In this document: positions 3,340 to 22,205 of the stretch, in pieces
Layout of the letters: each line of letters starts with the position of its first letter
How positions within the stretch are numbered: the first letter of the stretch is position 1
NCBI GenBank assembly: GCA_022826705.1
Contig: JAJDUJ010000022.1
Location: forward strand, 44,989-108,988
Source: Acidimicrobiia bacterium
GTDB taxonomy: Bacteria > Actinomycetota > Acidimicrobiia > Acidimicrobiales > Bin134
Direction: 5' to 3'
DNA length: 64,000 bases
Position numbers and translations under genes: made by a program
The notes under the pieces: generated by a model
Seen by the model: the letters and a program-made list of their open reading frames with translations, nothing else
The model's database searches: none
What the model was told of the DNA's origin: nothing

Positions 3340-5928
3340 TTGATTGCATGGGTCGACAGTGACATTTGGTCAGTGCCAGTGGTGTTAAATGCTTCTGTGG
3401 ATCTTCCTGCTGAATCCTCGGTGAACCCCTATCGGCTGCCGCGGGGAGTGGTGCCGCGGCGGTATGAGCTGCGGTTGGAACCGGACTTGGAGGCGTTCAC
3501 GTTTACGGGGACAGTGGGGGTGGACGTTGAGGTGGTGGAGTCGACCAGCGAGATCGTGCTCAATGCGGCCGAGCTGGAGATCAGTGGCGGCGACCTCAAC
3601 GGAGTGGCGTTGGCCGAGGTTGACTACGACGGCGAGCACGAGCGGGCGGTGCTGCGGCTAGGCGAAGCAGTTCAGCCGGGTGCCGCTCGGCTGAACCTGT
3701 CGTTCACCGGCACGCTCAACGACCAGCTTCGGGGGTTTTATCGCTCGACGTTTACCGATGACGATGGCGATGAGCGGGTGATCGCCACCACGCAGTTTGA
3801 ATCGACCAATGCCCGACGGGCGTTTCCGTGCTGGGACGAGCCCGACCTCAAGGCGGTGTTCGAGGTGACCCTGGTGGTGCCCGGCGACCTGATGGCGGTG
3901 TCGTCGGGGGCGGAGGTGGATTCACGACCTACTGGCGACGGGCGCCGGGAGGTGTCATTCGCCCCCACCATGGAGATGTCCACCTATCTGCTGGCCTTCA
4001 TAGTCGGCCCGCTGGAGGCCACCGATCCGGTAGATGTGAACGGCACGCCGCTGCGTGTCGTTCATCCCATCGGCAAAGGACATCTCACCGAGTACGCCCT
4101 CGACGCCGGAGCGTTCTGCCTCGGCTTCTTCGAGGACTACTTCGCTATCGACTACCCCGGCGACAAGCTCGACCTCGTGGCTATACCCGACTTCGCCTTC
4201 GGGGCCATGGAGAACATGGGCTGCGTCACCTTCCGGGAGATCCTGCTGCTGTTGGACCCCGACTCATCAACCCAGCAGGAGCGGCAGACCGCGGTGGACG
4301 TGATTGCCCACGAACTGGCCCACATGTGGTTCGGAAACCTGGTCACCATGAAGTGGTGGAACGGCATCTGGCTGAAGGAGGCCTTCGCCACGTTCTGCGA
4401 GATGCTGGCAGTGGACGCCTACCGCCCCGACTGGAAGCGCTGGCTGGCCTTCGGATTGTCGCGGGCCGCGGCCTTCGACGTGGACGCCCTGGCCGCCACC
4501 CGGGCCATCGAGTACCCAGTGGTCTCCCCCGCCGATGCCGAGGGAATGTACGACTTGCTCACCTACGAAAAGGGCGCAGCCGCGGTGCGGATGCTGGAGC
4601 AGTACCTAGGCGTCGACGAATTCCGCGACGGGGTCCGCCACTATCTCCGGCGCCATTCCTACGCCAACACCGAGACCCACGACATTTGGGATGCGCTGGC
4701 CGAGTCCACCGGCGAACCGGCCCGAGACGTTATGGACTCATGGATCTTCCAGGGCGGCCACCCGGTGGTGACCGCCGCGACCGATGACGGCGGTGCCATC
4801 ACGCTCCGCCAAGAACGGTTCCGCTACGACGGCCAACCCGACGACGCCCGCTGGCAAGTGCCGGTAGTGGCCGCAGTGGGTACCAATGCCGCAGAGCACA
4901 CCGAGCGGCTAGTGCTTGAGGACCCAGTGGCCCTGAGCACCGACGACCCCGCCTGGGTCATGGTCAATCCGACAGCCGACGGCTTCTACCGAGTGGCCTA
5001 CGAGGGCGGATTGCTCGACCGGCTGCTGGACGGCGGCCCCGACCTAGACCCCCTCCAGCGCTACGTACTGGTGGACGACCAGTGGGCCCTCACGGTGGCG
5101 AACCGGCTGAGCGTGGCCGATTACGTGGGGTTCGCCGAACGTATGGCCGCCGCGGAGGACGATCTGGCGGTGTGGCGCCGCTTGGCCAGCACGCTGGGCA
5201 CCCTCGACCACATGGTTCCCGACGACGGAAGGGCCGACCTCCAAGCTCGAGTCCAAAGCCTGGTCGGGCCGGCCTGGGCTCGGGTGGGCTGGGAGCCGGT
5301 CGCCGGAGAAGACGAGCGCATCGGCGAGCTGAGGGGCGTGCTGGCCCGCACCCTGGCCGTGGGCGGCAACGACGCCGACGCCATCGCCCGGTGCCGAGAA
5401 TTGATGGCCGCCGAGGCCGTCGACCCCGCCCTGGCCGCGGCCGCCATTGCGGTGGTGGCCGCCACCGGTGACGACGCCGACTACCAGGAGATCCACCACC
5501 GCTACCAAAGCGCCCCCACCCCCCAGCTCGAACTGCGCTACCTGATGGCACTCACCACCTTCGACGACCCCGCGCTCATGGACCGCACCCTGGCCGCCAC
5601 CCTCGACGGCACAGTTCGCAGCCAAGACGCCGGATTCGTGCTCCGAGGCTGCCTGGAGAACCGCGGCCGCGGCCCCCAAGCATGGGCATTCATCACCGAA
5701 CACTGGGACGACATCAACCAACGCCTCCCCACCGCCATAGTCCCCCGAATGCTCGGCGGCATAACCGCCCTCTCCACCCCTGAGCTAGCCACCGAAGTCG
5801 AGGAGTTCCTAAAAGCCCACCCCGTCCCCCAAGGCAAGCTGATCCTCGCCCAACACCTAGAACGCCAAAAGGTAAACGTCCAACTGCGAAGCCGAGTCCA
5901 GGAAGCTCTGGGAACGAAGGAGAACTGA
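3340..5928 (+). CDS. pepN: aminopeptidase N (M1 family zinc metallopeptidase)
   Basis: GAMEN motif (FGAMENMG) and HELAHMWFGN followed by WLKEAFA (HExxH-x18-E). N-terminal NPYRLP. The start is uncertain (TTG 3340, or in-frame GTGs at 3373-3421). Confidence 0.9.
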   Translation: MIAWVDSDIWSVPVVLNASVDLPAESSVNPYRLPRGVVPRRYELRLEPDLEAFTFTGTVGVDVEVVESTSEIVLNAAELEISGGDLNGVALAEVDYDGEHERAVLRLGEAVQPGAARLNLSFTGTLNDQLRGFYRSTFTDDDGDERVIATTQFESTNARRAFPCWDEPDLKAVFEVTLVVPGDLMAVSSGAEVDSRPTGDGRREVSFAPTMEMSTYLLAFIVGPLEATDPVDVNGTPLRVVHPIGKGHLTEYALDAGAFCLGFFEDYFAIDYPGDKLDLVAIPDFAFGAMENMGCVTFREILLLLDPDSSTQQERQTAVDVIAHELAHMWFGNLVTMKWWNGIWLKEAFATFCEMLAVDAYRPDWKRWLAFGLSRAAAFDVDALAATRAIEYPVVSPADAEGMYDLLTYEKGAAAVRMLEQYLGVDEFRDGVRHYLRRHSYANTETHDIWDALAESTGEPARDVMDSWIFQGGHPVVTAATDDGGAITLRQERFRYDGQPDDARWQVPVVAAVGTNAAEHTERLVLEDPVALSTDDPAWVMVNPTADGFYRVAYEGGLLDRLLDGGPDLDPLQRYVLVDDQWALTVANRLSVADYVGFAERMAAAEDDLAVWRRLASTLGTLDHMVPDDGRADLQARVQSLVGPAWARVGWEPVAGEDERIGELRGVLARTLAVGGNDADAIARCRELMAAEAVDPALAAAAIAVVAATGDDADYQEIHHRYQSAPTPQLELRYLMALTTFDDPALMDRTLAATLDGTVRSQDAGFVLRGCLENRGRGPQAWAFITEHWDDINQRLPTAIVPRMLGGITALSTPELATEVEEFLKAHPVPQGKLILAQHLERQKVNVQLRSRVQEALGTKEN

Positions 5929-7597: not shown

Positions 7598-9480
7598 CCC
7601 TCACCCGTTGTCGCCTGCACCCAGCGGCCCAGGGCCATCAACGGGAACACCAGCCGGTAGAGGTGGTAGCGGATGTAGAAGTCGCCGGAGAAGCCGGTGC
7701 CGGTGTACCAGGGCTCGTCCCAGTCCCCGTCGTCGCGCTGGTGCTCTACCAGCCAGGCCACCCCTCGCTGGGCCGCCTCCTCGCTCGCACGCCCCGCGGC
7801 GATCAACGCCAGCAGCACCCATGCAGTCTGCGACGGGGTGGACTCCCCCCGCCCCCGCCAGTTGTCGTCGACATAGGAGCGCATGTCCTCGCCCCACCCG
7901 CCGTCTTGGTTTTGCACCGACTCCAGCCAGCGGCATGCTCGCACTATCCGGTTGTCGTCGGCGGGCACCCCGGCGCTGATCAACGCCGGGACCACCGCCC
8001 CGGTGCCGTAGAGGTAGTTGGCCCCCCAGCGCCCATACCAGGAACCGTCCTCCTCCTGCTCATCACTGAGCCACCGAACCCCGCGGTCCATTGCATTCCG
8101 GTCGATTGGGAAGCCCATACCGTCGGCATCCAGCTCGGCGAGCATCTCCACCACGTGGGCGGTCACATCGGCCGACGGCGGATCGATGACCTCTCCGAAA
8201 TCGCAGAACGGGAGCTCGGCCACCAGCGGCGAGCAGTTGTCGGCATCGAATGCCGCCCAGCCACCATCGGAGCACTGCATCCCCTGGGCCCACACCACCG
8301 CCCGATCCAGCGCCTTTTGCACCTGCTTGGCGTCGGGATGGCGGATGCGGCGCAGGGCGAGGGCCACCTCGGCGGTGTCGTCCAGATCGGGGTAGTAGTT
8401 GTTCTCGAACTCGAACGCCCATCCCCCCGGGGCCAGATGGGGGCGTTGCTCAGCCCAGTCGCCCACGATCTGGACCTCTTGATCGATGAGCCAGCGGGCC
8501 CCGGCCACCATCTGCGGGTCTTCGGCGTCCACACCGGCATCGGCCAGCGCGAGCAGCGCCAGGCAGGTATCCCAAACCGGCGACTGGCAGCACTCCAAGC
8601 GTCGCATGTCGTCTTCGACGATGGTCCAAGCGTCGAACCCGGCCAGCCCTTGGGCCAGAATCGGATGGTGCAGGGAATGGCCCCGCACGTACAGGGCCAA
8701 GAGCGAGTACACCCACGGCGGCTGGATGCCCCCCCAGCAGCCGTCGGACTCCTGACGGGCGATGATCCACTGCTCGGCCCGACTGAGCGCCCACTCCCGC
8801 ACCCGCCGCTGCGGACGGTTCTCGTAGAGATGCAGCACTTGATCAAGGCGCTGGAATCGCCGCGCTGGACTCCCGGGCGGGGCGAGCTCCCGTTCCGGGG
8901 GGATCGCCCCGGTGCGGATCTCATCCAGGTTCAGTCCCATAGACCGCACCGGGCGGTGAGCCCCCACCACGGTCAAAGCGACCAGGGTTTGGCGGGCCCA
9001 GCAGGCGAAGTCATAGATGTTCAGCGGAACCTGCTTGGGCAGAAAGATCACCTCGGGAGGCAGGGCGGGCAGGTCTTCCCATCGCCAGAGGTCGAAAAGC
9101 GCCATCCAGATTCGGGTGAAAACCCGGCTGCGCTCCAGCCCTCCCTCGGCGCGGATATAGGCGGCGGCTTTGGCCATGTGGTCGGCGTCGACGGGATCGC
9201 CGGCGTAGCGCAGCGCCCAGTAGGCCTCCACGGTCACCGACAGATCGGCCGGACCCTGGTAGAAGGTGGCCCACGTGCCGTCGGCTCGCTGGTTGTGGCG
9301 GATCCAGTTGGCCGTCTGCCGGGTGACCTCGGGGTCGGCGATGCCCAAGAACTCCCGGAGGAACAGATCCTCGGCCTCGATGGACACGTTGGTCTCCAGC
9401 TCGTCTTTCCACCATCCCTGAGTGTCTTGCAGACTGAGGAGCCGTTCGGTGGCCTTGGCCAAAGATTGCTCAACGCCCAT
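7594..9480 (-). CDS. shc: squalene-hopene cyclase
   Basis: DxDD motif in YYPDLDDTAEVALAL and QW-type repeats. The start is set to ATG 9480 (MGVEQSLAKATERLL), which overlaps the previous stop (TGATG 9478-9482). The 67 upstream codons of the ORF track are an Arg/Gly-rich artefact. Confidence 0.9.
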   Translation of the reverse strand: MGVEQSLAKATERLLSLQDTQGWWKDELETNVSIEAEDLFLREFLGIADPEVTRQTANWIRHNQRADGTWATFYQGPADLSVTVEAYWALRYAGDPVDADHMAKAAAYIRAEGGLERSRVFTRIWMALFDLWRWEDLPALPPEVIFLPKQVPLNIYDFACWARQTLVALTVVGAHRPVRSMGLNLDEIRTGAIPPERELAPPGSPARRFQRLDQVLHLYENRPQRRVREWALSRAEQWIIARQESDGCWGGIQPPWVYSLLALYVRGHSLHHPILAQGLAGFDAWTIVEDDMRRLECCQSPVWDTCLALLALADAGVDAEDPQMVAGARWLIDQEVQIVGDWAEQRPHLAPGGWAFEFENNYYPDLDDTAEVALALRRIRHPDAKQVQKALDRAVVWAQGMQCSDGGWAAFDADNCSPLVAELPFCDFGEVIDPPSADVTAHVVEMLAELDADGMGFPIDRNAMDRGVRWLSDEQEEDGSWYGRWGANYLYGTGAVVPALISAGVPADDNRIVRACRWLESVQNQDGGWGEDMRSYVDDNWRGRGESTPSQTAWVLLALIAAGRASEEAAQRGVAWLVEHQRDDGDWDEPWYTGTGFSGDFYIRYHLYRLVFPLMALGRWVQATTGEG

Positions 9481-14688: not shown

Positions 14689-15888
14689 CTACTCCTGCTC
14701 GGCAATCTTGATGGCCTCTTCAAAGCTGGTGCCCTGCTCGATGAGGTTGCGGTACTTCATCACGTGGCGAGGCCGGTTGAAGCCAAGCACGCCGACCAGT
14801 CGGCCCGCTCGGCCGTAGAGGGCGGCAAACCGCCGCTCCTCGGTCGATCCGGTGATGATGCGCACCTCGTCGTCGGGCCGGGCTCGTCCCGCCAACTGGA
14901 TCTTGCGGTCGTACTGGTCGCTCCAGAACCACGGGACCGGGGCATAGGGCTGGGCCTCGTCGTCGGAGGCCAGCAGACGGAGCGCCGCATGCTGGCCCTG
15001 GGCAATGGCGTTGTCCCAGTGCTCCACCCGCATGATCTCGCCGAACAGGCGGTTGGGCCAGCGGGCCACGTCCCCGGCCGCGGCGATACCGGGAGCGGCC
15101 AAACAGGTCTCGTCGCACACCACGCCGTTGTCCAACTCCAGCCCCGAGCCCTCCAGCCACTCGGTATTGGGGATCACCCCGATGCCCACCACCACCACAT
15201 CGGCATCCATCGAAGTGCCGTCGCTCAGGTTCACCCGCTCCACCCGGCCATGGCCGTCGAAGCCGTCGACGCCCACGCCGAGTCGCAGGTCCACGCCGTG
15301 GTCTCGGTGCACATCAGCGCACACCGTGCCGACCTCGGTGCCCAATACGCGGCCCAGCGGCACCGGCAGGGCTTCGATCACAGTGACCTCCAGGCCCCGC
15401 TCCCGGGCGGTGGCCGCCACCTCGGCACCGATGAACCCGGCCCCCACCACCGCCACCCGCTGGGGAGAGTCCTCCAGTTCGGCTCGGATGGCCAGGCAGT
15501 CGTCCAGGCCCCGCAGGGTGTAGATGCCGTCGAGGCCGTTGGTGGGGAGCTCCCGGCATCGGGCCCCGGTGGCGATCAGAATGCCGTCGGCGGCGACCGT
15601 TGAGCCGTCGTCAAGCGTCACGGTCCGGTTGGCCACATCGAGCCCGGCGGCCCGGCGGCCCAGCCGCCAGTCGGCGCCTAGATCTTGGAGCGATTCATCG
15701 TCGGACAGAGCGATGCGGTCCTGCTCCCATTCCCCGGCGAGGAGCTGCTTGGACAGGGGAGGTCGGTCGTAGGGCTGGTGGGGCTCATCGCCGATGATGG
15801 TGATGGCCCCGTCGAAACCTTCTCGCCGGAGCATCTCCGCCGCCCGGGTTCCGGCCAGCGAAGCTCCGACAATCGCTAGTGAGCGCAG
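14689..15888 (-). CDS. ferredoxin--NAD(P)+ reductase (FAD pyridine-nucleotide-disulfide oxidoreductase family), probable CTG start
   Basis: Second Rossmann motif VAVVGAGFIGAEVA and a reductase C-terminal domain. The ORF track starts at ATG 15834, but the frame stays open upstream and encodes the obligatory FAD motif AIVGASLAG. CTG 15888 lies 10 nt after GAGGAG. Confidence 0.8.
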   Translation of the reverse strand: MRSLAIVGASLAGTRAAEMLRREGFDGAITIIGDEPHQPYDRPPLSKQLLAGEWEQDRIALSDDESLQDLGADWRLGRRAAGLDVANRTVTLDDGSTVAADGILIATGARCRELPTNGLDGIYTLRGLDDCLAIRAELEDSPQRVAVVGAGFIGAEVAATARERGLEVTVIEALPVPLGRVLGTEVGTVCADVHRDHGVDLRLGVGVDGFDGHGRVERVNLSDGTSMDADVVVVGIGVIPNTEWLEGSGLELDNGVVCDETCLAAPGIAAAGDVARWPNRLFGEIMRVEHWDNAIAQGQHAALRLLASDDEAQPYAPVPWFWSDQYDRKIQLAGRARPDDEVRIITGSTEERRFAALYGRAGRLVGVLGFNRPRHVMKYRNLIEQGTSFEEAIKIAEQE

Positions 15889-15895
15889 CGGGCGC

Positions 15896-16096
15896 CTACT
15901 CCTCGGCGACGGAGATGGCTTGCTTGGGGCAGCGCTGAATTGACTCGTTCACTCGTTCGCGAGCCTCATCCCCAGGGGTCTCGTTCAGCAGGTACAAAAA
16001 GTCGTCGTCGCGCACCTCGAAAATGTCAGGAGCGACCTGCATGCAAATGGCGTTGCTCTCACACAGGTCGTAGTCCACGACCACCCGGTATCCCAT
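15896..16096 (-). CDS. small 3Fe-4S-type ferredoxin
   Basis: MGYRVVVDYDLCESNAICMQVAPDIF...RCPKQAI (Cx5C...CP). SD GGAGGA sits 5 nt before ATG 16096. Confidence 0.8.
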   Translation of the reverse strand: MGYRVVVDYDLCESNAICMQVAPDIFEVRDDDFLYLLNETPGDEARERVNESIQRCPKQAISVAEE

Positions 16097-16187
16097 CGGA
16101 TCCTCCCATCTCCCAGAAAGACACCCCGACCCTACCCAACCAACCCCCACCCCGTCACCATCGGGCCGCCGAACTCAGTAGGACTGC

Positions 16188-16490
16188 TCAGGGGAGGATG
16201 TCGTGACTGCCGACTTGCAGCCAAACCACATGGCGCTTGCCAGAGACCTGCTCCGAACCCCAGGCGAATGTGGCTCGACCATCGGGTGCCCAAGACATCT
16301 CGTAGACGTTGGATGCGCCCACCACCTTCTTGACCCGCAGTCCAGGACGGAACCAGTCAATGCGGCCTTCTTCAATCTCCCGAAGGTCGGCAACGAAGGA
16401 CCTCAAACTACTCCTGAGCTGGGCAGCTTGAGCAGGTGCGAGGTGTCTCAGCCCGCGCCGGAATGCCGGCTTCATTGCGTATGTGGGCAC
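16188..16490 (-). CDS. RelE/ParE-superfamily toxin-like protein
   Basis: KPAFRRGLRHLAPAQAAQLRSSLRSFVADL then VYEMSWAPDGRATF...RHVVWLQVGSHDIL. This is the pattern of RelE/ParE/YafQ-type toxins (helical N-terminus, beta-sheet, C-terminal xGxHDxL). Confidence 0.55.
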   Translation of the reverse strand: MPTYAMKPAFRRGLRHLAPAQAAQLRSSLRSFVADLREIEEGRIDWFRPGLRVKKVVGASNVYEMSWAPDGRATFAWGSEQVSGKRHVVWLQVGSHDILP

Positions 16491-16510
16491 CGCAGATGGA
16501 GCGTGTGATG

Positions 16511-16717
16511 CTAATCAGGGACTGCGTCGTTCAGATGCACGTCGACAGCAGCCAGAAAGTCTTCGGAATTGGCATGAAATGTGCAATCAGATACGTCGGA
16601 GGCAGGCCCATTACCGGTGTCGGCTTCAATATCAGCCACCGTGAGCGCTTCGGGCTGCGATTCTCTGCGCTGCTTTCGGCTCGAAGGCAGCCAATGGCGC
16701 AAGCTTGTAAGAGCCAT
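16511..16717 (-). CDS. hypothetical small acidic protein, candidate antitoxin
   Basis: 68 aa from ATG 16717, preceded by GGAGGA with a 6-nt spacer. It ends 20 nt upstream of the toxin-like ORF. No DNA-binding fold is recognisable. Confidence 0.35.
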   Translation of the reverse strand: MALTSLRHWLPSSRKQRRESQPEALTVADIEADTGNGPASDVSDCTFHANSEDFLAAVDVHLNDAVPD

Positions 16718-16839
16718 CAGCAGTCCTCCGAGGTCAACACCGCCACCCACTCTACCTAGCCATCATCAGAATGCGACAGGCAGTCTCCACATCATCATGT
16801 AGAGGTTCCTGGCCCTTGCAGCGGCCAGTCAGCACCTGA

Positions 16840-17982
16840 ATGGCCTCTAGGCTGCAGAGCAGCAGTCCGAACGTCGCTCGAATCACAGAGGTAGAGCATT
16901 CACTGGAACACAGGGCATTCGACTACAGTTGCCAGCCCCAAAGACTGAATTGGCCAGACACAGAATCAGGTGAAGAAAGACGAGGAGCTATGTCGACGGT
17001 CGACATTCGAGACGATGAAGCCTCCAACGGGGCCTCTTCCATACCCACAGATTCGACACCAACCCATGCACACGACAATCAGATCCCACAGAGTCCTTCC
17101 CGCGCAGAACTTCGAACCCGCGCTCTTGAATCTCGGAACAGCTACGAAGTCGGCGAGCTTCCGAGCGAGGAAGAGGGCGCCGAGATTGACAACGCACTGC
17201 ACCTGGAGGCTGAAGACGAGTCCTCACTAGGAGTCGCCTTTAGATTTCTCGTATTGGACGACATCCCGGATGACGAGAGGATTGGTGCTCTTCAGGAAGA
17301 ACGCGGCCACACCAGCCCTGGGACAGCCATCGGCCTGCGACAACACTTGGACGCACTCCGATTTGGCATCTTTCCCCAGGGCACGTCGATGGCGAGGCAA
17401 ATCGCTGCCCGCATGAAGTCCACGATGCGTAGACATGACTTCTCGGATAGCACTCGTGCAGTACTCGAGCGAAACATTGCCGCACTCGAGAAAATCGCAG
17501 CCGACACTGACTTGTTCGAGGACGAACAGCTGCAGGCTGAAGTCGCCGAGCAAAGTTTGGAAGACAAGTTGAGGGGCCGCGCTGGTGTGTACGTCTTTAC
17601 CTATCCCCACTACATGCGCCATCCGACCCACCAGTCGGCTGAATCCGAGAAGATGCCGGACCGCACGCTCCTGAAGGTCGGATTTAGCGACAGCGGCATC
17701 CTGGAACGAGTGAACCAAGAGACCAGCGGGGCGGGAGTGCCAGAGCACCGCCGGGTCCTGCGCGCCTATTTGACGACAGAACGTGAGATTCCTTCGAACA
17801 AGAAGATCGAGCGACAGTTCCACGATCTGCTGGATTCAGCGGGCCATGTGGGACCAAAACGGGGTTCTACAGAGCATCAGCGTGGTGGGAGAGAGTGGTT
17901 CTATACGAGTGTTGAATTCTTGGATCAGGTCGCTGGGCTGTTGGACCTGGAGATAGTTGAGATCGAAGCACCGGACCTCTAA
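16840..17982 (+). CDS. T5orf172/MUG113 (GIY-YIG-superfamily) domain protein with long acidic N-terminal region
   Basis: C-terminal GVYVFTYP...LLKVGFSDSGILERVNQ...IERQFHDLL...GGREWFYTSVEFL matches the T5orf172 pattern. The N-terminal ~230 aa are acidic and low-complexity. Alternative start ATG 16990. Confidence 0.6.
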   Translation: MASRLQSSSPNVARITEVEHSLEHRAFDYSCQPQRLNWPDTESGEERRGAMSTVDIRDDEASNGASSIPTDSTPTHAHDNQIPQSPSRAELRTRALESRNSYEVGELPSEEEGAEIDNALHLEAEDESSLGVAFRFLVLDDIPDDERIGALQEERGHTSPGTAIGLRQHLDALRFGIFPQGTSMARQIAARMKSTMRRHDFSDSTRAVLERNIAALEKIAADTDLFEDEQLQAEVAEQSLEDKLRGRAGVYVFTYPHYMRHPTHQSAESEKMPDRTLLKVGFSDSGILERVNQETSGAGVPEHRRVLRAYLTTEREIPSNKKIERQFHDLLDSAGHVGPKRGSTEHQRGGREWFYTSVEFLDQVAGLLDLEIVEIEAPDL

Positions 17983-18326
17983 TGGGCGTACGAATCCGTA
18001 TCTCAAGGTGAGGGAAGCAACAAGAGAGTGGCAATCTACAGTGACCCATCTCAGTCCTCGGCAAGCCTGAAGCATGCCGTATACCGAAATCGCCTCGCCT
18101 AGTCCAAAGTACCCTCCTTCAAATGGAGCGCGAATCTGAGAGACCCTCTGAGTCACAGGGTTGGCGAATCCACTGGAGGTCTCCGAGGCTGCCACCGCGG
18201 GGAGACCTAAGCGACTACATGCAGGGTCCGGACGCAGAATTCGACGGGACACTACGAGGAGCCTGGAGACTGTGGCGGGAAACAGGCCGTGCACAGAGAC
18301 GAGTGGAGGTGTGGGAGGCAGAGAGC

Positions 18327-18926
18327 ATGCACTACCCGGCAGAGGGCCACATCGACGACATCAGGGCCGCAACCCGTCAACTGCACGAAGTCGCAGAAGC
18401 GAATGGCCTTGAGGTCGTCGAAGACTGGCCTGAATCCTCCACGGCGCTCGCGGAGATTTCTCTCGCCGAGAACCTCGTATTACTGGCACCAGGCCAATCC
18501 GAAGATCTGCTCATGGCTTCGCTGGCCCACGAACTAGGCCACTTCATGGATCCATGGCTACAAGCGAACTGGGAGTGGTACGACAGCTATCGCAATGAGG
18601 GCGACATCGAAATCGTCGCCCAGATGGCCGCCGCCATATTTGCCGACTGGTACGGCATCAACCTACTCGCCAACACCGACGGGTATCTTTCCTACTGGGC
18701 TCGCACCTCCAAGGCCCGTCGAGAAGGCACCGTAGGAGAATTGTTGGAACGGGCCTCCATCAGCGGCCTCAGCCTCCTCCCGCAAACCCAGGACGTGGCT
18801 CACGAACTCGATCGCGCCCACCAACGGGCTAGTTACCGCAACGCCACCTCCGGCTTCCTAGGTCGCTTCTTCCGAAGCGAGCGCCGAGAACAAAAGCTAG
18901 GCATCATCGATTGCAGTGACTGGTAG
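18327..18926 (+). CDS. ImmA/IrrE-like (DUF955) HExxH zinc metallopeptidase
   Basis: LAHELGHF about 68 aa after ATG 18327, which is preceded by GGGAGG with an 8-nt spacer. The pre-motif region (NGLEVVEDWPESSTALAEISLAENLVLLAPGQSEDLLMASLAHELGH) resembles ImmA. The ORF track extends to 18123. Confidence 0.55.
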   Translation: MHYPAEGHIDDIRAATRQLHEVAEANGLEVVEDWPESSTALAEISLAENLVLLAPGQSEDLLMASLAHELGHFMDPWLQANWEWYDSYRNEGDIEIVAQMAAAIFADWYGINLLANTDGYLSYWARTSKARREGTVGELLERASISGLSLLPQTQDVAHELDRAHQRASYRNATSGFLGRFFRSERREQKLGIIDCSDW

Positions 18927-19038
18927 CAATAGTTCAATCTGTCTTGGACCATTCTTCAAGCACTTACTTTCTTGCAAGGAAGGACCGAATGTACTACTTT
19001 TCGCGCCCACAGAAAATTCATAAAGGAACACGGATAGC

Positions 19039-19599
19039 ATGGAAGATGTAACTCAAGTGCTCTCAGCAATTGCATCTGTAGCAGCTGTTGTAATCGCATA
19101 TATATCATACCGAGCTTATAAGTTCCTTCTTCCTTCAGCAGAACTGAAGCGCAAGAAGGATGAGGCAATGAATCAAATTGCTGGACTTCTATTGGAATTT
19201 CACGATCAACAGAAAACTATAGCTAGCGCTTTAGTAAACAACTTTCACTTGGACCCTTATGTTCTGTCATCAAGAGGTCGCAATTCAAGACATCTATATC
19301 GACTGCTAGATAAGGCCATCAAACTTGGGCTATGGCAAGAAATTACAGGCAACCATGATTTGAGTATTACACTGTATACTGCATTTCGACAGAGTTTGGC
19401 TTCCCTAGCAGACTTGGACCCGATCACTGCAGACCCCAATGACTATTTGCCGCAGCATGTTGTAATGGGCACAATCCGACTTGCGGATCAGTGCCGAAAA
19501 TATGAAGGCCTGGACCTTGCTGGCGAAGTAGAAAGCGTGTTTTCCTCCATGTTGACACACCAGTCATTGGAAGAGGCTTGGGACTACTTGAAGTCATAG
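19039..19599 (+). CDS. hypothetical membrane-anchored protein (orphan, about 40% GC)
   Basis: N-terminal TM helix VLSAIASVAAVVIAYISY, then about 150 aa of helical sequence with no motif I recognise. The only long ORF in this AT-rich stretch. Confidence 0.5.
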   Translation: MEDVTQVLSAIASVAAVVIAYISYRAYKFLLPSAELKRKKDEAMNQIAGLLLEFHDQQKTIASALVNNFHLDPYVLSSRGRNSRHLYRLLDKAIKLGLWQEITGNHDLSITLYTAFRQSLASLADLDPITADPNDYLPQHVVMGTIRLADQCRKYEGLDLAGEVESVFSSMLTHQSLEEAWDYLKS

Positions 19600-19621
19600 T
19601 CGAATATTCGGCTCTCAAAGT

Positions 19622-19966
19622 CTAGAGGCAATGGTGTTGGGTGTAGGTGCGGATTTGTTGGCGGGCGGTGGCTACTGCCTCTTCTAGGGCGAAGGCTTTG
19701 CTGAACAGCTCTTGGAGGTCTTCGATCTCGTCGATCTCCCGGGAGGCGTTGGCCACGGTGGTGACTGCCTCTCGAATGTCGGGAGGGGCGGCGTCTTCCA
19801 GAGCATCCAACTGGGCTAATTCCTGCTCGCCTTCAGCGGGACGCATCCCCACCCCGTCCTCGGCCAAATCGCAGAACGCCACAATGTCGCCCCTGTCTTC
19901 TCCGCCGCACGCCACCAACACGACCAAGAGCGACATGCACACCAGCAGGCAGGCGAAGCGCTTCAC
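19622..19966 (-). CDS. small secreted lipoprotein
   Basis: From GTG 19966: VKRFACLLVCMSLLVVLVACGGED is a signal peptide with lipobox LVAC. The 218-aa track ORF is an extension overlapping the upstream thiolase gene. Confidence 0.5.
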   Translation of the reverse strand: MKRFACLLVCMSLLVVLVACGGEDRGDIVAFCDLAEDGVGMRPAEGEQELAQLDALEDAAPPDIREAVTTVANASREIDEIEDLQELFSKAFALEEAVATARQQIRTYTQHHCL

Positions 19967-19983
19967 CCCTCTAGCTTGCCCGT

Positions 19984-21150
19984 TCAGGAGGTGGGCTTGT
20001 CGGAACCCACGATCCACATGGCGTAGTACTGGGCGCCGCCGCCGTAGGCGTGGCCGAAGGCTTTGCGGGCGCCGTCCACCTGGTGATCGCCGGCCATGCC
20101 CCGCACCTGGAGGGCGGCTTCGGCAAAGCGGATCATGCCCGAGGCTCCGATGGGGTTGGACGACAGCACCCCGCCCGAGCAGTTCACCGGAAGGTCCCCG
20201 CCGTCGAGATGGGTGGCTCCCTCCTCCACCAGCTTCCAGCCGTCGCCTATCTCGCAGAACCCCAGGCTCTCCAACCACATGGGCTCATACCACGAGAACG
20301 GCACGTAGATCTCCACCTCGTCGATCTCGCCTCGCCGGTCGGTGATGCCCGCCTGGGCGAACACGTCATCGGCGCAGTCCCGGCTGGCCTGGGGGTTTAC
20401 CTCGTCGCGTCCGGGGAAATTGTTGGCCTCACTGCGCAGGGCCGCGCCGTGGAGCCAGGCCACCGGCTTGGTGGAGGCATCCCCGGCTGCCTCGTCGCCC
20501 AGCACCAGCGCGCAGGCACCGTCGGACGATGGACAGGTCTCAGAGAACCGGATCGGCTCCCACAACATGGGTGACTCCACCACCTGGTCGAAGGTCAGGT
20601 CTTTCTGCTGGAGGTGGGCGTAGGGATTGCGCAAGGCGTGCTGGCGGTCTTTGAACGCCACCATGCAGCCGATCAGCTCGGGGGCGTTGGTGCGGGCCAT
20701 GTACTGGCGGATGATGGGCGAGAAGTAGCCGCCGGCCCCGGCATTGATCGACACCGAGAACGGCTGGGGCAAAGACAGCGCCCAAGTGGCGTTGGACTCC
20801 GACTGCTTCTCAAATCCCAGGGTGAGCACACGGCGATGGATGCCGGCTTGCACTAGCGAGGCGGCCACTACTGCGGTTGACCCGCCCACCGAACCCGCAG
20901 TGTGGACTCGTAGCAGCGGCTTGCCCACCGCCCCGAGCGCCTCGGCCAAGTACAGCTCGGGCTGCATGACCCCTTCGAAGAAGTCGGGGGCTTTGCCCAC
21001 CACCACGGCGTCGATGTCGTTCCAATCCAGTTCGGCGTCTTCGAGCGCCCGATAAGCGGCCTCCCGCACCAGGCCGGGCAGCGACACGTCGCCTCGGGTG
21101 GTCTGGTACTTGGTCTGTCCGACCCCCAGTACTGCGGTGCGCTCGGCCAT
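19984..21150 (-). CDS. thiolase-superfamily protein (SCP-x/Ltp-like), lacks nucleophile Cys
   Basis: MAERTAVLGVGQTKY...CPSSDGACALVL...NCSGGVLSSNPIGASG. The expected acyl-Cys loop reads RVHTAGSVGGSTAV. ATG 21150 overlaps the upstream stop (ATGA). Confidence 0.8.
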   Translation of the reverse strand: MAERTAVLGVGQTKYQTTRGDVSLPGLVREAAYRALEDAELDWNDIDAVVVGKAPDFFEGVMQPELYLAEALGAVGKPLLRVHTAGSVGGSTAVVAASLVQAGIHRRVLTLGFEKQSESNATWALSLPQPFSVSINAGAGGYFSPIIRQYMARTNAPELIGCMVAFKDRQHALRNPYAHLQQKDLTFDQVVESPMLWEPIRFSETCPSSDGACALVLGDEAAGDASTKPVAWLHGAALRSEANNFPGRDEVNPQASRDCADDVFAQAGITDRRGEIDEVEIYVPFSWYEPMWLESLGFCEIGDGWKLVEEGATHLDGGDLPVNCSGGVLSSNPIGASGMIRFAEAALQVRGMAGDHQVDGARKAFGHAYGGGAQYYAMWIVGSDKPTS

Positions 21151-22205
21151 CACTCCCCCTCCATCACGCACACCAGGTTCTGCTGGAGGTAGAGGCCCGA
21201 CGCGGCGTGGCCCAACACCCGGTCGGCTCGCTCGTTGTGGATCTGGGCGGCCGCGTCGGCGATGCGCATGAGGCCGGCGGCCATCATGGTGTGGCCAGCC
21301 AATGCCCCGCCGCTGGCGTTGACGGCAGTGCCGTTGCCCAACCCCAGCTCAAGCTCCAAGATGTGCTCTTGGGTGGTGAACGGGGCGGCCAGCTCAGCGG
21401 CGTCCAATCGATCGTTGCCCGCCCCGGAGTTGACCGCTGCCGCCTGCGCACTGGGTGCCCGGTTCAGGTCGCGCACCCCTGGCTGGTGGGGGTCGATGCG
21501 GTGGTCGATCCCCCTGATCCACGCGGGCCGCTCGCATAGCTCTCGGGCCCGGTCGCCGGCGGCTAGCACCACGGCCACGCCTCCGTCGGCGGAGGCTGCG
21601 CAGTCGCTGGGGCGCAGCGGATCGGCGATGGGGGCCTCAGCCAGCACACTCTCGGTGGTGGCCTCGGCCGACGACCGCACCGCCAGCGGATTGTCGGCTG
21701 CGCCGTTGAGGCTGCGAACCGCAATCTCGGCTAGTCGCTGCTCACTCACGGTCCCGGACTCCAGCATGATGCGGGCCTGAAGCGCGGCCAAGGAGAAGGC
21801 GTCAGGCCACAGCGGTCCCAAGTAGTAGGGGTCGAGCTGGGTGGAGAGCACATCGCGCAGCGATCCGGGTGACGACTTTCCGTAGCTGTACACCAGCGCA
21901 GTGTCCACCCCGCCAATCTGGAGTTTCACCCAAGCCTCGTACAGGGCCCAGGCACCGTCCATCTCCACATGGCTCTCGCTGATGGGCGGCACCGCACCCA
22001 CCGCGTCCAGGGTGTGGACGAATGAGAACGCCTGACCGGCCAGAAAGTCGCTGCTTCCCGAGCAGGTGAACCCGATGTCGTCTTGGGTGAGGCCCACAGC
22101 ACTCCGGGCCTCGTTGATGATCGGCACCATCAGCTCCACCTCAGTGGTGTTGGTGAGCGCCTTCTCCTGGTGCTGGGCCACCGAGACCACGGCGATGTCG
22201 CGCAT
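21150..22205 (-). CDS. thiolase-superfamily protein, second subunit type, lacks nucleophile Cys
   Basis: MRDIAVVSVAQHQ...ESHVEMDGAWALYEAWVKLQIGGVDTALVYSYGKSS...NASGGALAGH. ATG 22205 overlaps the DUF35 stop (ATGA). Confidence 0.75.
   Translation of the reverse strand: MRDIAVVSVAQHQEKALTNTTEVELMVPIINEARSAVGLTQDDIGFTCSGSSDFLAGQAFSFVHTLDAVGAVPPISESHVEMDGAWALYEAWVKLQIGGVDTALVYSYGKSSPGSLRDVLSTQLDPYYLGPLWPDAFSLAALQARIMLESGTVSEQRLAEIAVRSLNGAADNPLAVRSSAEATTESVLAEAPIADPLRPSDCAASADGGVAVVLAAGDRARELCERPAWIRGIDHRIDPHQPGVRDLNRAPSAQAAAVNSGAGNDRLDAAELAAPFTTQEHILELELGLGNGTAVNASGGALAGHTMMAAGLMRIADAAAQIHNERADRVLGHAASGLYLQQNLVCVMEGE

Follow-up and report, generated by a model that had tools for sequence, protein, structure and literature searches.

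Hotspots that lack mobile elements and diversify through recombination at their flanking core genes are well described (Oliveira et al. 2017, PMC5635113). Here we analyse a stretch of 64,000 nucleotides (nt) from an Acidimicrobiia bacterium (assembly GCA_022826705.1, contig JAJDUJ010000022.1, positions 44,989 to 108,988; C17:44989-108988), hereafter the window, and within it an islet of low guanine-plus-cytosine (GC) content at 16168-19621. The islet lies between a ferredoxin gene and a lipoprotein gene and carries five genes: a RelE/ParE-type toxin with its small partner, a T5orf172 nuclease, a protein with an HExxH motif and a membrane protein (Table 1). We consider it probable that this islet is the current content of a mobile-element-free, hypervariable slot, a hotspot of horizontal gene transfer diversified by homologous and homology-facilitated illegitimate recombination. 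As in the described hotspots, a fixed slot between syntenic core genes shows fast accessory turnover and has no integrase, transposase or tRNA; there are signs of recombination in a flanking gene, and empty alleles are consistent with 'chromosome curing'. Unlike them, the slot is very small (0-10 kb) and bounded to the nucleotide, by the end of a leader and by a stop codon. Toxin-antitoxin pairs and solitary nuclease genes predominate in its cargo, its variation is seen across the species of an uncultured Acidimicrobiales genus rather than within a model species, and its duplication scars point to one-sided joining besides double crossover.

The locus also invites comparison with classical integrative islands, which it resembles in atypical composition, in insertion at the 3′ end of a gene and in presence/absence polymorphism. 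In contrast to such islands, the window has no integrase, tRNA or flanking repeats at the islet, which is a stack of unrelated, differently aged cassettes. Homology-facilitated illegitimate recombination, in which a homologous anchor on one side is combined with a microhomology join on the other, is known from naturally transformable bacteria and was reportedly described by de Vries and Wackernagel in 2002. The likeness here is that in two alleles the insert abuts the flank on one side and a relic of the flank on the other (16 bp in ERZ2183, 52 bp in G019); the difference from the precedent is that the process would be read solely from its end-products in metagenome-assembled genomes (MAGs).

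Boundaries, empty alleles and composition of the islet

We searched the interval 14700-21200 of the window against 40 related genomes and aligned the junctions with those of empty sites. The gene order ferredoxin reductase and ferredoxin, then lipoprotein and thiolase, was found in all same-genus genomes with a contiguous locus and on five metagenomic scaffolds. The ferredoxin gene is a core gene kept in all relatives, and the lipoprotein gene heads a thiolase/DUF35 operon. On the left side the homology of each allele to the window either ends at 16163-16170 or runs on into the islet, and the junction lies at 16167|16168, at the end of the 71-nt ferredoxin leader. The junction alignments show a nearly invariant leader in congeners that differ by 5-15% in their coding flanks; the leader could serve as a regulatory 5′ untranslated region or form a G-quadruplex. 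The coding strand of the leader is G-rich (GGCCCGATGGTGACGGGGTGGGGGTTGGTTGGGTAGGGTCGGGGTGTCTTTCTGGGAGATGGGAGGATCCGATG) and had no match in Rfam. On the right side homology breaks off in every allele at exactly the same point, 19621|19622, where the lipoprotein gene has its stop codon. The original prediction, made from the letters of the window without database searches, had placed the islet at 16150-19621, at most 18 nt away from these refined junctions.

The site is empty in 9 of 24 congeners (G001, G003, G004, G007, G009, G010, G020, G021 and G024), with a spacer of 9 nt in eight of them (e.g. GCGTGTCAG) and of 51 nt in G021. Other congeners hold partial or different cargo, so that the islet is not a core segment which relatives carry at the same locus. 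Moreover, the lipoprotein gene ends in TAG in 9/11 occupied alleles and in TAA or TGA in 9/9 empty ones (Fisher p ~7e-4). Because TAG goes with occupied sites and TAA or TGA with empty ones, this codon's third base behaves as if it belonged to the insert. This linkage suggests a single founding insertion, followed by much recombination.

The composition of the islet sets it apart from its genome (3.45 Mb in 31 contigs; 65.0% GC, with a standard deviation (SD) of 3.2% among 1-kb windows). The islet as a whole (3.45 kb) has 55% GC and its last 0.7 kb (18930-19621) 43.5%. Sliding 300-nt windows give a GC fraction of 0.54-0.61 over 16.0-18.9 kb and 0.40-0.48 over 18.85-19.6 kb, against 0.65-0.74 in the flanks on either side, and the islet is the deepest GC dip of the window. 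Three GC values counted by hand in the original prediction proved exact (73.3% at 20041-20100, 51.7% at 17041-17100 and 40.0% at 19081-19140). The tetranucleotide distance of the islet to the genome mean is 0.037, which is 5 SD from the mean of 0.016 for genomic windows (SD 0.004), a deviation reached by only 11 of the 3362 equally sized windows of the genome. Both the sliding-window and the tetranucleotide analysis, which had been proposed as checks, show an outlier, and the low-GC islet is real. Since about 15 GC dips of comparable depth exist in the genome, the islet is unusual but not unique; such dips are far from common, amounting to only ~0.3-1% of the genome. Other, larger regions of low GC (down to 44-49%) and atypical tetranucleotide usage lie at C31:21001-36000, C2:5751-11000, C15:87501-92750 and C6:235001-239750.

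These data bear on the simplest alternative, namely that the islet is an old core region whose low GC content is due to function or chance. The toxin-antitoxin pair and the T5orf172 gene are indeed old at this site and have 57-60% GC in all carriers. However, the nine empty sites exclude such a region, and the scattered occupancy, the differing cargo and the tetranucleotide deviation of 5 SD also speak against it, leaving this explanation scarcely credible.

The absence of mobility genes was borne out as far as integrases and transposases are concerned, since neither these nor genes of prophages or integrative conjugative elements were found among the five islet proteins with Pfam, NCBIfam or PHROGs. 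Nor was a tRNA found in the window. A repeat search in the window gave nothing convincing, direct or inverted, at the islet ends, in agreement with the flanking repeats reported as missing; the terminal matches were imperfect, 14-28 nt long and at chance level. The left spacer GCCGAACTCAG resembles the right CTCTCAAAGT, a resemblance too short to judge. An Rfam scan of the window had no match, and scans of the window for sigma-70 promoters and intrinsic terminators found no consensus. For the five islet proteins PADLOC (PADLOC-DB 2.0, E <= 0.1) gave no match, and NCBIfam and PHROGs gave nothing useful. One nuance is that T5orf172 proteins are regarded as homing endonucleases in phages, so that a nuclease-assisted route is conceivable.

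Two architectures do not fit the locus. An integron cassette array is contradicted by the lack of an IntI integrase and of attC sites or recurrent imperfect palindromes in the intergenic gaps, and a classical integrative island by the lack of a tyrosine or serine recombinase in the window and in ~12 other occupied alleles. No integrase was present in any of the ~12 occupied alleles examined, among which an IS3 orfA fragment and HNH genes were found.

Turnover of the slot among relatives

At least eight different cargo sets occur at the slot, besides the nine empty alleles. G019, whose flanks are 95% identical to those of the window, carries the same RelE pair together with a PD40 propeller, an RCC1/HExxH protein, a BrnT-like pair, MazF with a ribbon-helix-helix (RHH) protein and Phd/VapC. 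G018 holds VapBC, a CAP-domain protein and MazEF; G002 holds a T5orf172 gene (74% identity), a broken AAA ATPase and Phd/VapC. Two DUF222-HNH endonuclease genes (485 and 451 amino acids (aa)) and a second copy of the lipoprotein gene fill the slot of G008 (L021, G008:C1:2802300-2812100). Among the metagenomic scaffolds, TARA and VXOK carry T5orf172 and MazEF, ERZ2183 carries T5orf172, an IS3 orfA fragment (HTH_Tnp_1) and a DUF433 pair, and PANK carries MazEF and an HExxH gene. These cargoes make the slot a small store of cassettes, with a predominance of toxin-antitoxin modules. The second lipoprotein copy of G008 is diverged and has no stop codon at the usual place, and blocks of 44-50% and 62-68% GC alternate there. 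Judging from the source names of homologues, the relatives of the window are marine or sponge-associated Acidimicrobiales; a literature search on the genus name found nothing.

Several alleles share parts of the islet with the window. G019 and G006 are 96% identical to it up to 16985, the ribosome-binding site (RBS) of the T5orf172 gene, and unrelated beyond. G022 and G023 have the toxin-antitoxin pair only, with homology to 16786 and 16777, respectively. In TARA, ERZ2183 and OY762975 the final ~45 bp of the toxin gene remain, ~16211-16876 is missing and T5orf172 follows at 80-81% identity; in these three the deletion starts at 16211-16214 and homology resumes at 16854-16880. Because the alleles form a nested series, the order of leader, RelE pair and T5orf172 gene predates much of the diversification of the genus. 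Identity of the pair and the T5orf172 gene to the corresponding genes of relatives is 79-81%, whereas the flanks of most of these relatives reach ~89-90%. Both modules keep 57-60% GC in every carrier; they are old residents of the slot, not a recent import.

A gradient in GC content had been taken to suggest at least two acquisition events or different ages. This was right and conservative, as there are at least three or four layers: the RelE pair and T5orf172 are shared across the genus, the HExxH gene recurs at the slot in one metagenomic relative and the membrane cassette occupies the slot in this genome only. We infer that the islet is a stack of small autonomous modules of different dates rather than one element, in which an old RelE/ParE-type pair would have been followed by an old T5orf172 gene, then by the HExxH gene and latest by the membrane cassette of 44% GC.

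To place occupancy on phylogenies we built IQ-TREE trees from 1.47 kb of the left flank and 1.2 kb of the thiolase gene, scored three states (RelE/T5orf172 lineage, empty, other cargo) in 21 genomes, and compared a tree of 320 bp of the lipoprotein gene. Broad congruence between the left-flank and thiolase trees makes it probable that both follow the species tree. On these two trees occupancy needs 9-10 changes over 21 tips; on the left-flank tree at least 8 of them are forced by well-supported branches, on the thiolase tree 3. The states do not cluster, with 487 of 500 label shuffles needing as few changes, and sister genomes differ in state in the pairs G006/G004, G023/G001 and TARA/G003. 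The topology of the lipoprotein tree differs from that of the flank trees. There G001 and G021, both empty, have lipoprotein genes that are 96-99% identical although their ferredoxin-reductase flanks are only ~85% identical, and the left flank rejects their grouping (approximately unbiased (AU) test, p = 7e-79, for a group picked after the tree had been seen). The lipoprotein gene of these two genomes is a recombination tract that abuts the slot, in this case between two empty alleles, as a 'curing' model predicts. On the 320-bp lipoprotein tree, no linkage of occupancy to the near flank was found.

Two alleles carry scars of duplication. In ERZ2183 (L044, ena:ERZ21830300 ctg711687l) a perfect 16-bp direct repeat, CCGTCACCATCAAGCC (also written CCGTCACCATCRRGCC), brackets a 4.3-kb insert at ~4807-4822 and 9093-9108. 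The repeat is the end of the leader, a lineage-specific AA variant is shared by both copies, and behind the right copy come an intact spacer of the empty type (TCGTGTCAG) and a TAA stop codon. In G019 (L022, G019:C29) a 52-bp repeat of the 3′ end of the lipoprotein gene, including its TAG stop codon, brackets Phd/VapC at 537-588 and 1459-1510. Both scars are what would be expected from one homologous anchor with an illegitimate join opposite. As side observations, a perfect hairpin with a 12-bp stem (TTGGACGCGAAG...CTTCGCGTCCAA) lies ~45 nt left of the right repeat copy in ERZ2183, and the VapC of G019 is 68% identical to the VapC at the same position in G002.

The repeat in ERZ2183 also raises the alternative of a decayed site-specific integrative element, whose att site would be the leader end plus spacer and whose integrase has been lost, the diversity of alleles then being due to decay and secondary insertions. 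Besides the perfect repeat at both ends of that insert and the empty-type spacer after its right copy, such an element would account for the IS3-type HTH_Tnp_1 fragment in the same allele, for the one left junction string in all RelE-lineage alleles and for TAG in 9/11 occupied against 0/9 empty alleles, which fits a single founding insertion. The 16-nt left junction string is present, with substitutions, in G019, G022, G023, TARA, VXOK, ERZ2183 and OY762975. However, none of the ~12 occupied alleles has an integrase, the window has no terminal repeat, and the 16-bp repeat is confined to one allele, where one-sided joining explains it equally well. In addition, the changes of state, at least eight, would require the element to excise and reintegrate precisely time after time with no recombinase. 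An integrative remnant is therefore unlikely.

Under the explanation we favour, recombination at the core flanks of a slot free of mobile elements, double homologous recombination in the flanks with related DNA would import occupied alleles, or empty ones ('curing'). One-sided homologous recombination with illegitimate joining would stack new cassettes, local deletions would afterwards trim the slot content, and toxin-antitoxin modules would most likely persist through addiction. Several points weigh against this explanation. The recombination is read from three short local trees, and the group of G001 and G021 was named post hoc. Recombination of whole alleles through the flanks should leave linkage, yet occupancy is unclustered on the flank and lipoprotein trees. 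Linkage confined to the stop codon fits a very old polymorphism with many crossovers and a precise site-specific process equally well, and the 16-bp repeat of ERZ2183 could be the att core of a lost integrative element. Most comparator genomes are MAGs, and in six of them contigs break at this locus. Finally, transformation, conjugation or transduction might each be the route of DNA transfer in these uncultured organisms.

The genes of the islet

The five open reading frames (ORFs) that had been read in the islet are all real genes with homologues (Table 1), and no paralogue of any of them exists elsewhere in the same genome.

Table 1. Coordinates of the islet features and of the genes that flank the slot (positions in the window).
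Feature	Position	Strand	Remarks
Left flank ferredoxin gene, 66-aa 4Fe-4S	15896-16096	-	Pfam Fer4_13/Fer4_15/Fer4_19; ATG start at 16096
Ferredoxin leader, 71 nt, left anchor	16097-16167	-	C-rich on + strand, ends ...CCGTCACCATCGGGCC
Left junction spacer GCCGAACTCAGTAGGACTGC	16168-16187	.	Common to all RelE-lineage alleles
RelE/ParE/YafQ-fold toxin, 100 aa	16188-16490	-	GTG start; fold predicted with AlphaFold2 and Foldseek
Putative antitoxin, 68 aa, acidic (12 D+E, 5 K+R)	16511-16717	-	RBS GGAGGA; ends 20 nt upstream of toxin gene
Divergent intergenic region, antitoxin/T5orf172	16718-16989	.	Deletion endpoint ~16877, replacement breakpoint ~16985
T5orf172 (GIY-YIG superfamily) nuclease, 330 aa	16990-17982	+	Start M51 of 380-aa ORF, RBS GACGAGGAG
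HExxH-motif protein, 267 aa	18123-18926	+	19 clade-restricted homologues; start uncertain
Low-GC cassette, 43.5% GC	18930-19621	+	Homology to L047 stops at 18929
Membrane protein, 186 aa, N-terminal transmembrane helix and helical domain	19039-19599	+	44% GC
Right flank lipoprotein gene, 114 aa, lipobox LVAC	19622-19966	-	GTG start at 19966; TAG stop at 19622-19624 is the right anchor

The two leftmost genes had been called a toxin-antitoxin-like pair, and a RelE/ParE fold, with its beta-strand, two alpha-helices and antiparallel sheet, together with a conserved small partner gene agrees with this. An AlphaFold2 model of the toxin, built with 30 homologues, has a predicted local distance difference test score (pLDDT) of 94.3 and a predicted template modelling score (pTM) of 0.86. 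In a Foldseek search of the PDB nearly all of the top ~34 hits are RelE, YafQ, YoeB, ParE or HigB structures, with TM scores of 0.5-0.73 and probabilities up to 1.00. In sequence, the toxin has no match in Pfam, NCBIfam, PADLOC or PHROGs at E <= 0.1, and PDB sequence and profile searches found no toxin and no significant match. Its 143 homologues are from Actinomycetota, none has a Pfam domain, and a single one bears the JGI label YafQ; residues R48, R72, H87, R92 and H96 are invariant or near-invariant. Members of the family are 97-100 aa long and span Kitasatospora, Streptomyces, Hamadaea and Acidimicrobiia (P0066-P0185).

The 68-aa partner is 36% identical (E 7e-13) to the 69-aa protein encoded elsewhere just ahead of a toxin homologue of 55% identity. 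It has no Pfam, NCBIfam or PADLOC match and no recognisable RHH, helix-turn-helix (HTH), Phd or AbrB domain. In Kitasatospora a MazE/AbrB antitoxin takes the position of the partner and overlaps the toxin gene; the type of partner thus varies by lineage, with MazE/AbrB there and the acidic 68-aa protein in Acidimicrobiia. By predicted fold and by synteny the pair is a toxin-antitoxin module, presumably an active one. The module resembles type II modules of the RelE/ParE kind (RelBE, DinJ-YafQ, YefM-YoeB, HigBA) in its 100-aa fold and upstream partner 20 nt away, in the lineage-variable partner and patchy spread, in having other toxin-antitoxin modules as neighbours and in toxin-first decay in one allele. 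It differs from them in that the toxin is unseen by Pfam and NCBIfam and that the partner has no recognisable DNA-binding domain; the toxin may be either an RNase (RelE-like) or a gyrase poison (ParE-like). The decay concerns allele VXOK (L043, GCA_009840105.1 VXOK01000040.1, 3661-3958), in which 16217-16464 of the toxin gene are deleted and the antitoxin gene is kept at 92% nucleotide identity, above the 90% of its flanks; this reads as loss of the toxin first, with an orphan antitoxin retained.

The third gene encodes a T5orf172 protein. T5orf172 is a subfamily of GIY-YIG nucleases; in phages its members are treated as homing endonucleases, and their genes lie at the borders of exchanged regions (Barth et al. 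2023, bioRxiv 10.1101/2023.03.23.533998). M51 is taken as the true start because nearly all homologues are ~330 aa long. The domain (Pfam PF10544) scores 31.7 bits against a cut-off of 20, at residues 268-365 of the 380-aa ORF, and MUG113 also matches. All 46 homologues are from Acidimicrobiia, and 42 of them have a precomputed PF10544 match. Residues of the GIY-YIG type (G199-V-Y201-V202, K229-V-G231, R240 and E302-W303-F304) are invariant over 15 homologues down to 38% identity, and their catalytic roles are predicted by analogy. A domain above the curated threshold and these conserved residues support the earlier description of the protein as nuclease-like. The gene resembles the T5orf172 homing genes of phages (ICP1, T5-like) in its C-terminal T5orf172 domain, in its GIY-YIG-type residues and as a solitary gene at an exchange boundary. 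In contrast to these, it is chromosomal, and the N-terminal 200 aa have no CapR, DUF723 or DUF4397 zinc-finger repeats. Moreover, unlike what recent phage-style homing would leave, its divergence pattern suggests long residence.

This gene is central to a further explanation, in which the T5orf172 protein, as a free-standing homing endonuclease, would cut empty alleles close to the leader or spacer, and repair from an occupied allele would copy the gene together with its neighbours. In a wider form, chromosomal T5orf172 and DUF222-HNH proteins would keep the slot open by short-tract gene conversion that drags cassettes along. If true, such nuclease-driven conversion would account for at least eight gains or losses, precise to the nucleotide, with the stop codon as the only linkage to the flanks. 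Consistent with it are the treatment of phage T5orf172 genes as homing endonucleases (bioRxiv 10.1101/2023.03.23.533998), the invariance of catalytic-type residues in the family, the HNH endonuclease genes in the G008 allele and an occupancy that does not follow flank phylogeny, a pattern that short conversion tracts would produce. The T5orf172 gene also sits at the same slot edge and in the same orientation in six genomes (the window, G002, TARA, VXOK, ERZ2183 and OY762975), and it occurs in two other islets between core genes elsewhere. However, T5orf172 is only 74-81% identical in nucleotides between alleles whose flanks are mostly 85-91% identical, so that its divergence both exceeds and tracks that of the flanks, as in vertical co-inheritance. 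Moreover, the slot is occupied without T5orf172 in G019, G006, G022, G023, G018 and PANK, and the N-terminal 200 aa hold no recognisable DNA-binding domain or phage-type zinc finger. In the window the toxin-antitoxin pair separates the gene from the target that it would presumably cleave. We regard homing as quite unlikely, and put the wider form no higher.

The fourth gene encodes the HExxH protein. An alternative start, M69 at 18327, has a better RBS (GGGAGG), and the genome's own annotation gives a protein of 199 aa. Conservation of protein and nucleotide sequence reaches upstream to ~18136, and we favour the long form because nucleotide homology to allele L047 starts at 18136. The family is clade-restricted, with 19 homologues of which none has a Pfam domain; H136, E137, G139, H140, D143, D154, D161 and E163 are invariant in 15 of them. 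Pfam, NCBIfam and PDB sequence and profile searches gave no significant match. The AlphaFold2 model has a pLDDT of 75.6, and its best Foldseek hits, IrrE/PprI (E 0.22, TM 0.24) and abylysin (probability 0.87, 65 columns), are not significant. Weak sequence matches were to a metallo-protease in PHROGs (E 0.03) and, as the best of the PDB profiles, to an HD-type oxygenase (E 0.015). The protein had been described as protease-like: the HExxH motif is indeed conserved, but the protease label is a guess, because neither the sequence nor the model, at pLDDT 76, gives a significant match. At this slot the gene occurs once more, on the PANK scaffold, where it is 85% identical and stands beside MazEF, and homologues lie elsewhere in the genomes of G001, G012 and G023. 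The homologue in L037 (G001:C1:928000-937000) lies in another accessory patch, with a 666-aa domainless protein (47-52% GC), a protein with an ApeA N-terminal domain, an M48 peptidase and an IS3-family transposase as neighbours.

The last gene, in the low-GC cassette, encodes a membrane protein that had been described as an orphan. This does not hold, as 82 clusters of homologues were found at E <= 1e-3 (best identity 62%), all of them lacking a Pfam domain; searched by sequence and by profile, the PDB gave no significant match to the protein. Among the 40 relatives the gene has no match, and at this slot it is seen in the window genome only. The best homologue (L048 5001-5561) has 42% GC in a contig of 60-65% GC and lies amid IS110, IS630 and IS256 transposases. 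Because 42-44% GC is kept in two hosts at 62% protein identity, the low GC content of the family is not simply a mark of very recent import. Certain homologues are repeated inside proteins of >1000 aa (P0193, P0252).

The last three genes (16990-19599) might together form an undescribed anti-phage operon of the abortive-infection type, in which case the islet would be a defence islet under selection as one unit. They are co-oriented, non-metabolic and of low GC content, beside a toxin-antitoxin pair in a module-rich slot; elsewhere, HExxH homologues lie near a protein with an ApeA N-terminal domain and MoxR/VWA genes, and one T5orf172 homologue lies near an AbiEii-like gene. However, eight T5orf172 contexts give seven unrelated downstream neighbours, none of them a homologue of the HExxH or membrane gene. 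HExxH genes are far from T5orf172 in G001 and G023 and beside MazEF in PANK, and the membrane gene, unmatched in the 40 relatives, has its nearest relative among transposases. Gaps of 140 and 112 nt and steps in GC content of 57, 60 and 44% mark the three genes as separate cassettes, and PADLOC had no match. A joint defence operon is thus very improbable. As a conserved operon, the trio was rejected: the genes downstream of T5orf172 in L045 and L046 are related neither to the HExxH gene nor to each other.

Meaning of the slot for its lineage

The locus is an ordinary, though unusually well resolved, hotspot, and it leaves current concepts unchanged. Three families of the islet stand outside curated models: a RelE-fold toxin of actinobacteria whose acidic partner is unusual, an HExxH protein restricted to the clade and a membrane protein of low GC content with a wide distribution. 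Stacking, toxin-first decay, curing and duplication scars can all be followed in the compact allele series, which could be used to test models of hotspot evolution. It offers a view, at nucleotide resolution, of how an uncultured actinobacterial lineage would trade small selfish modules via one intergenic slot with no mobile element.

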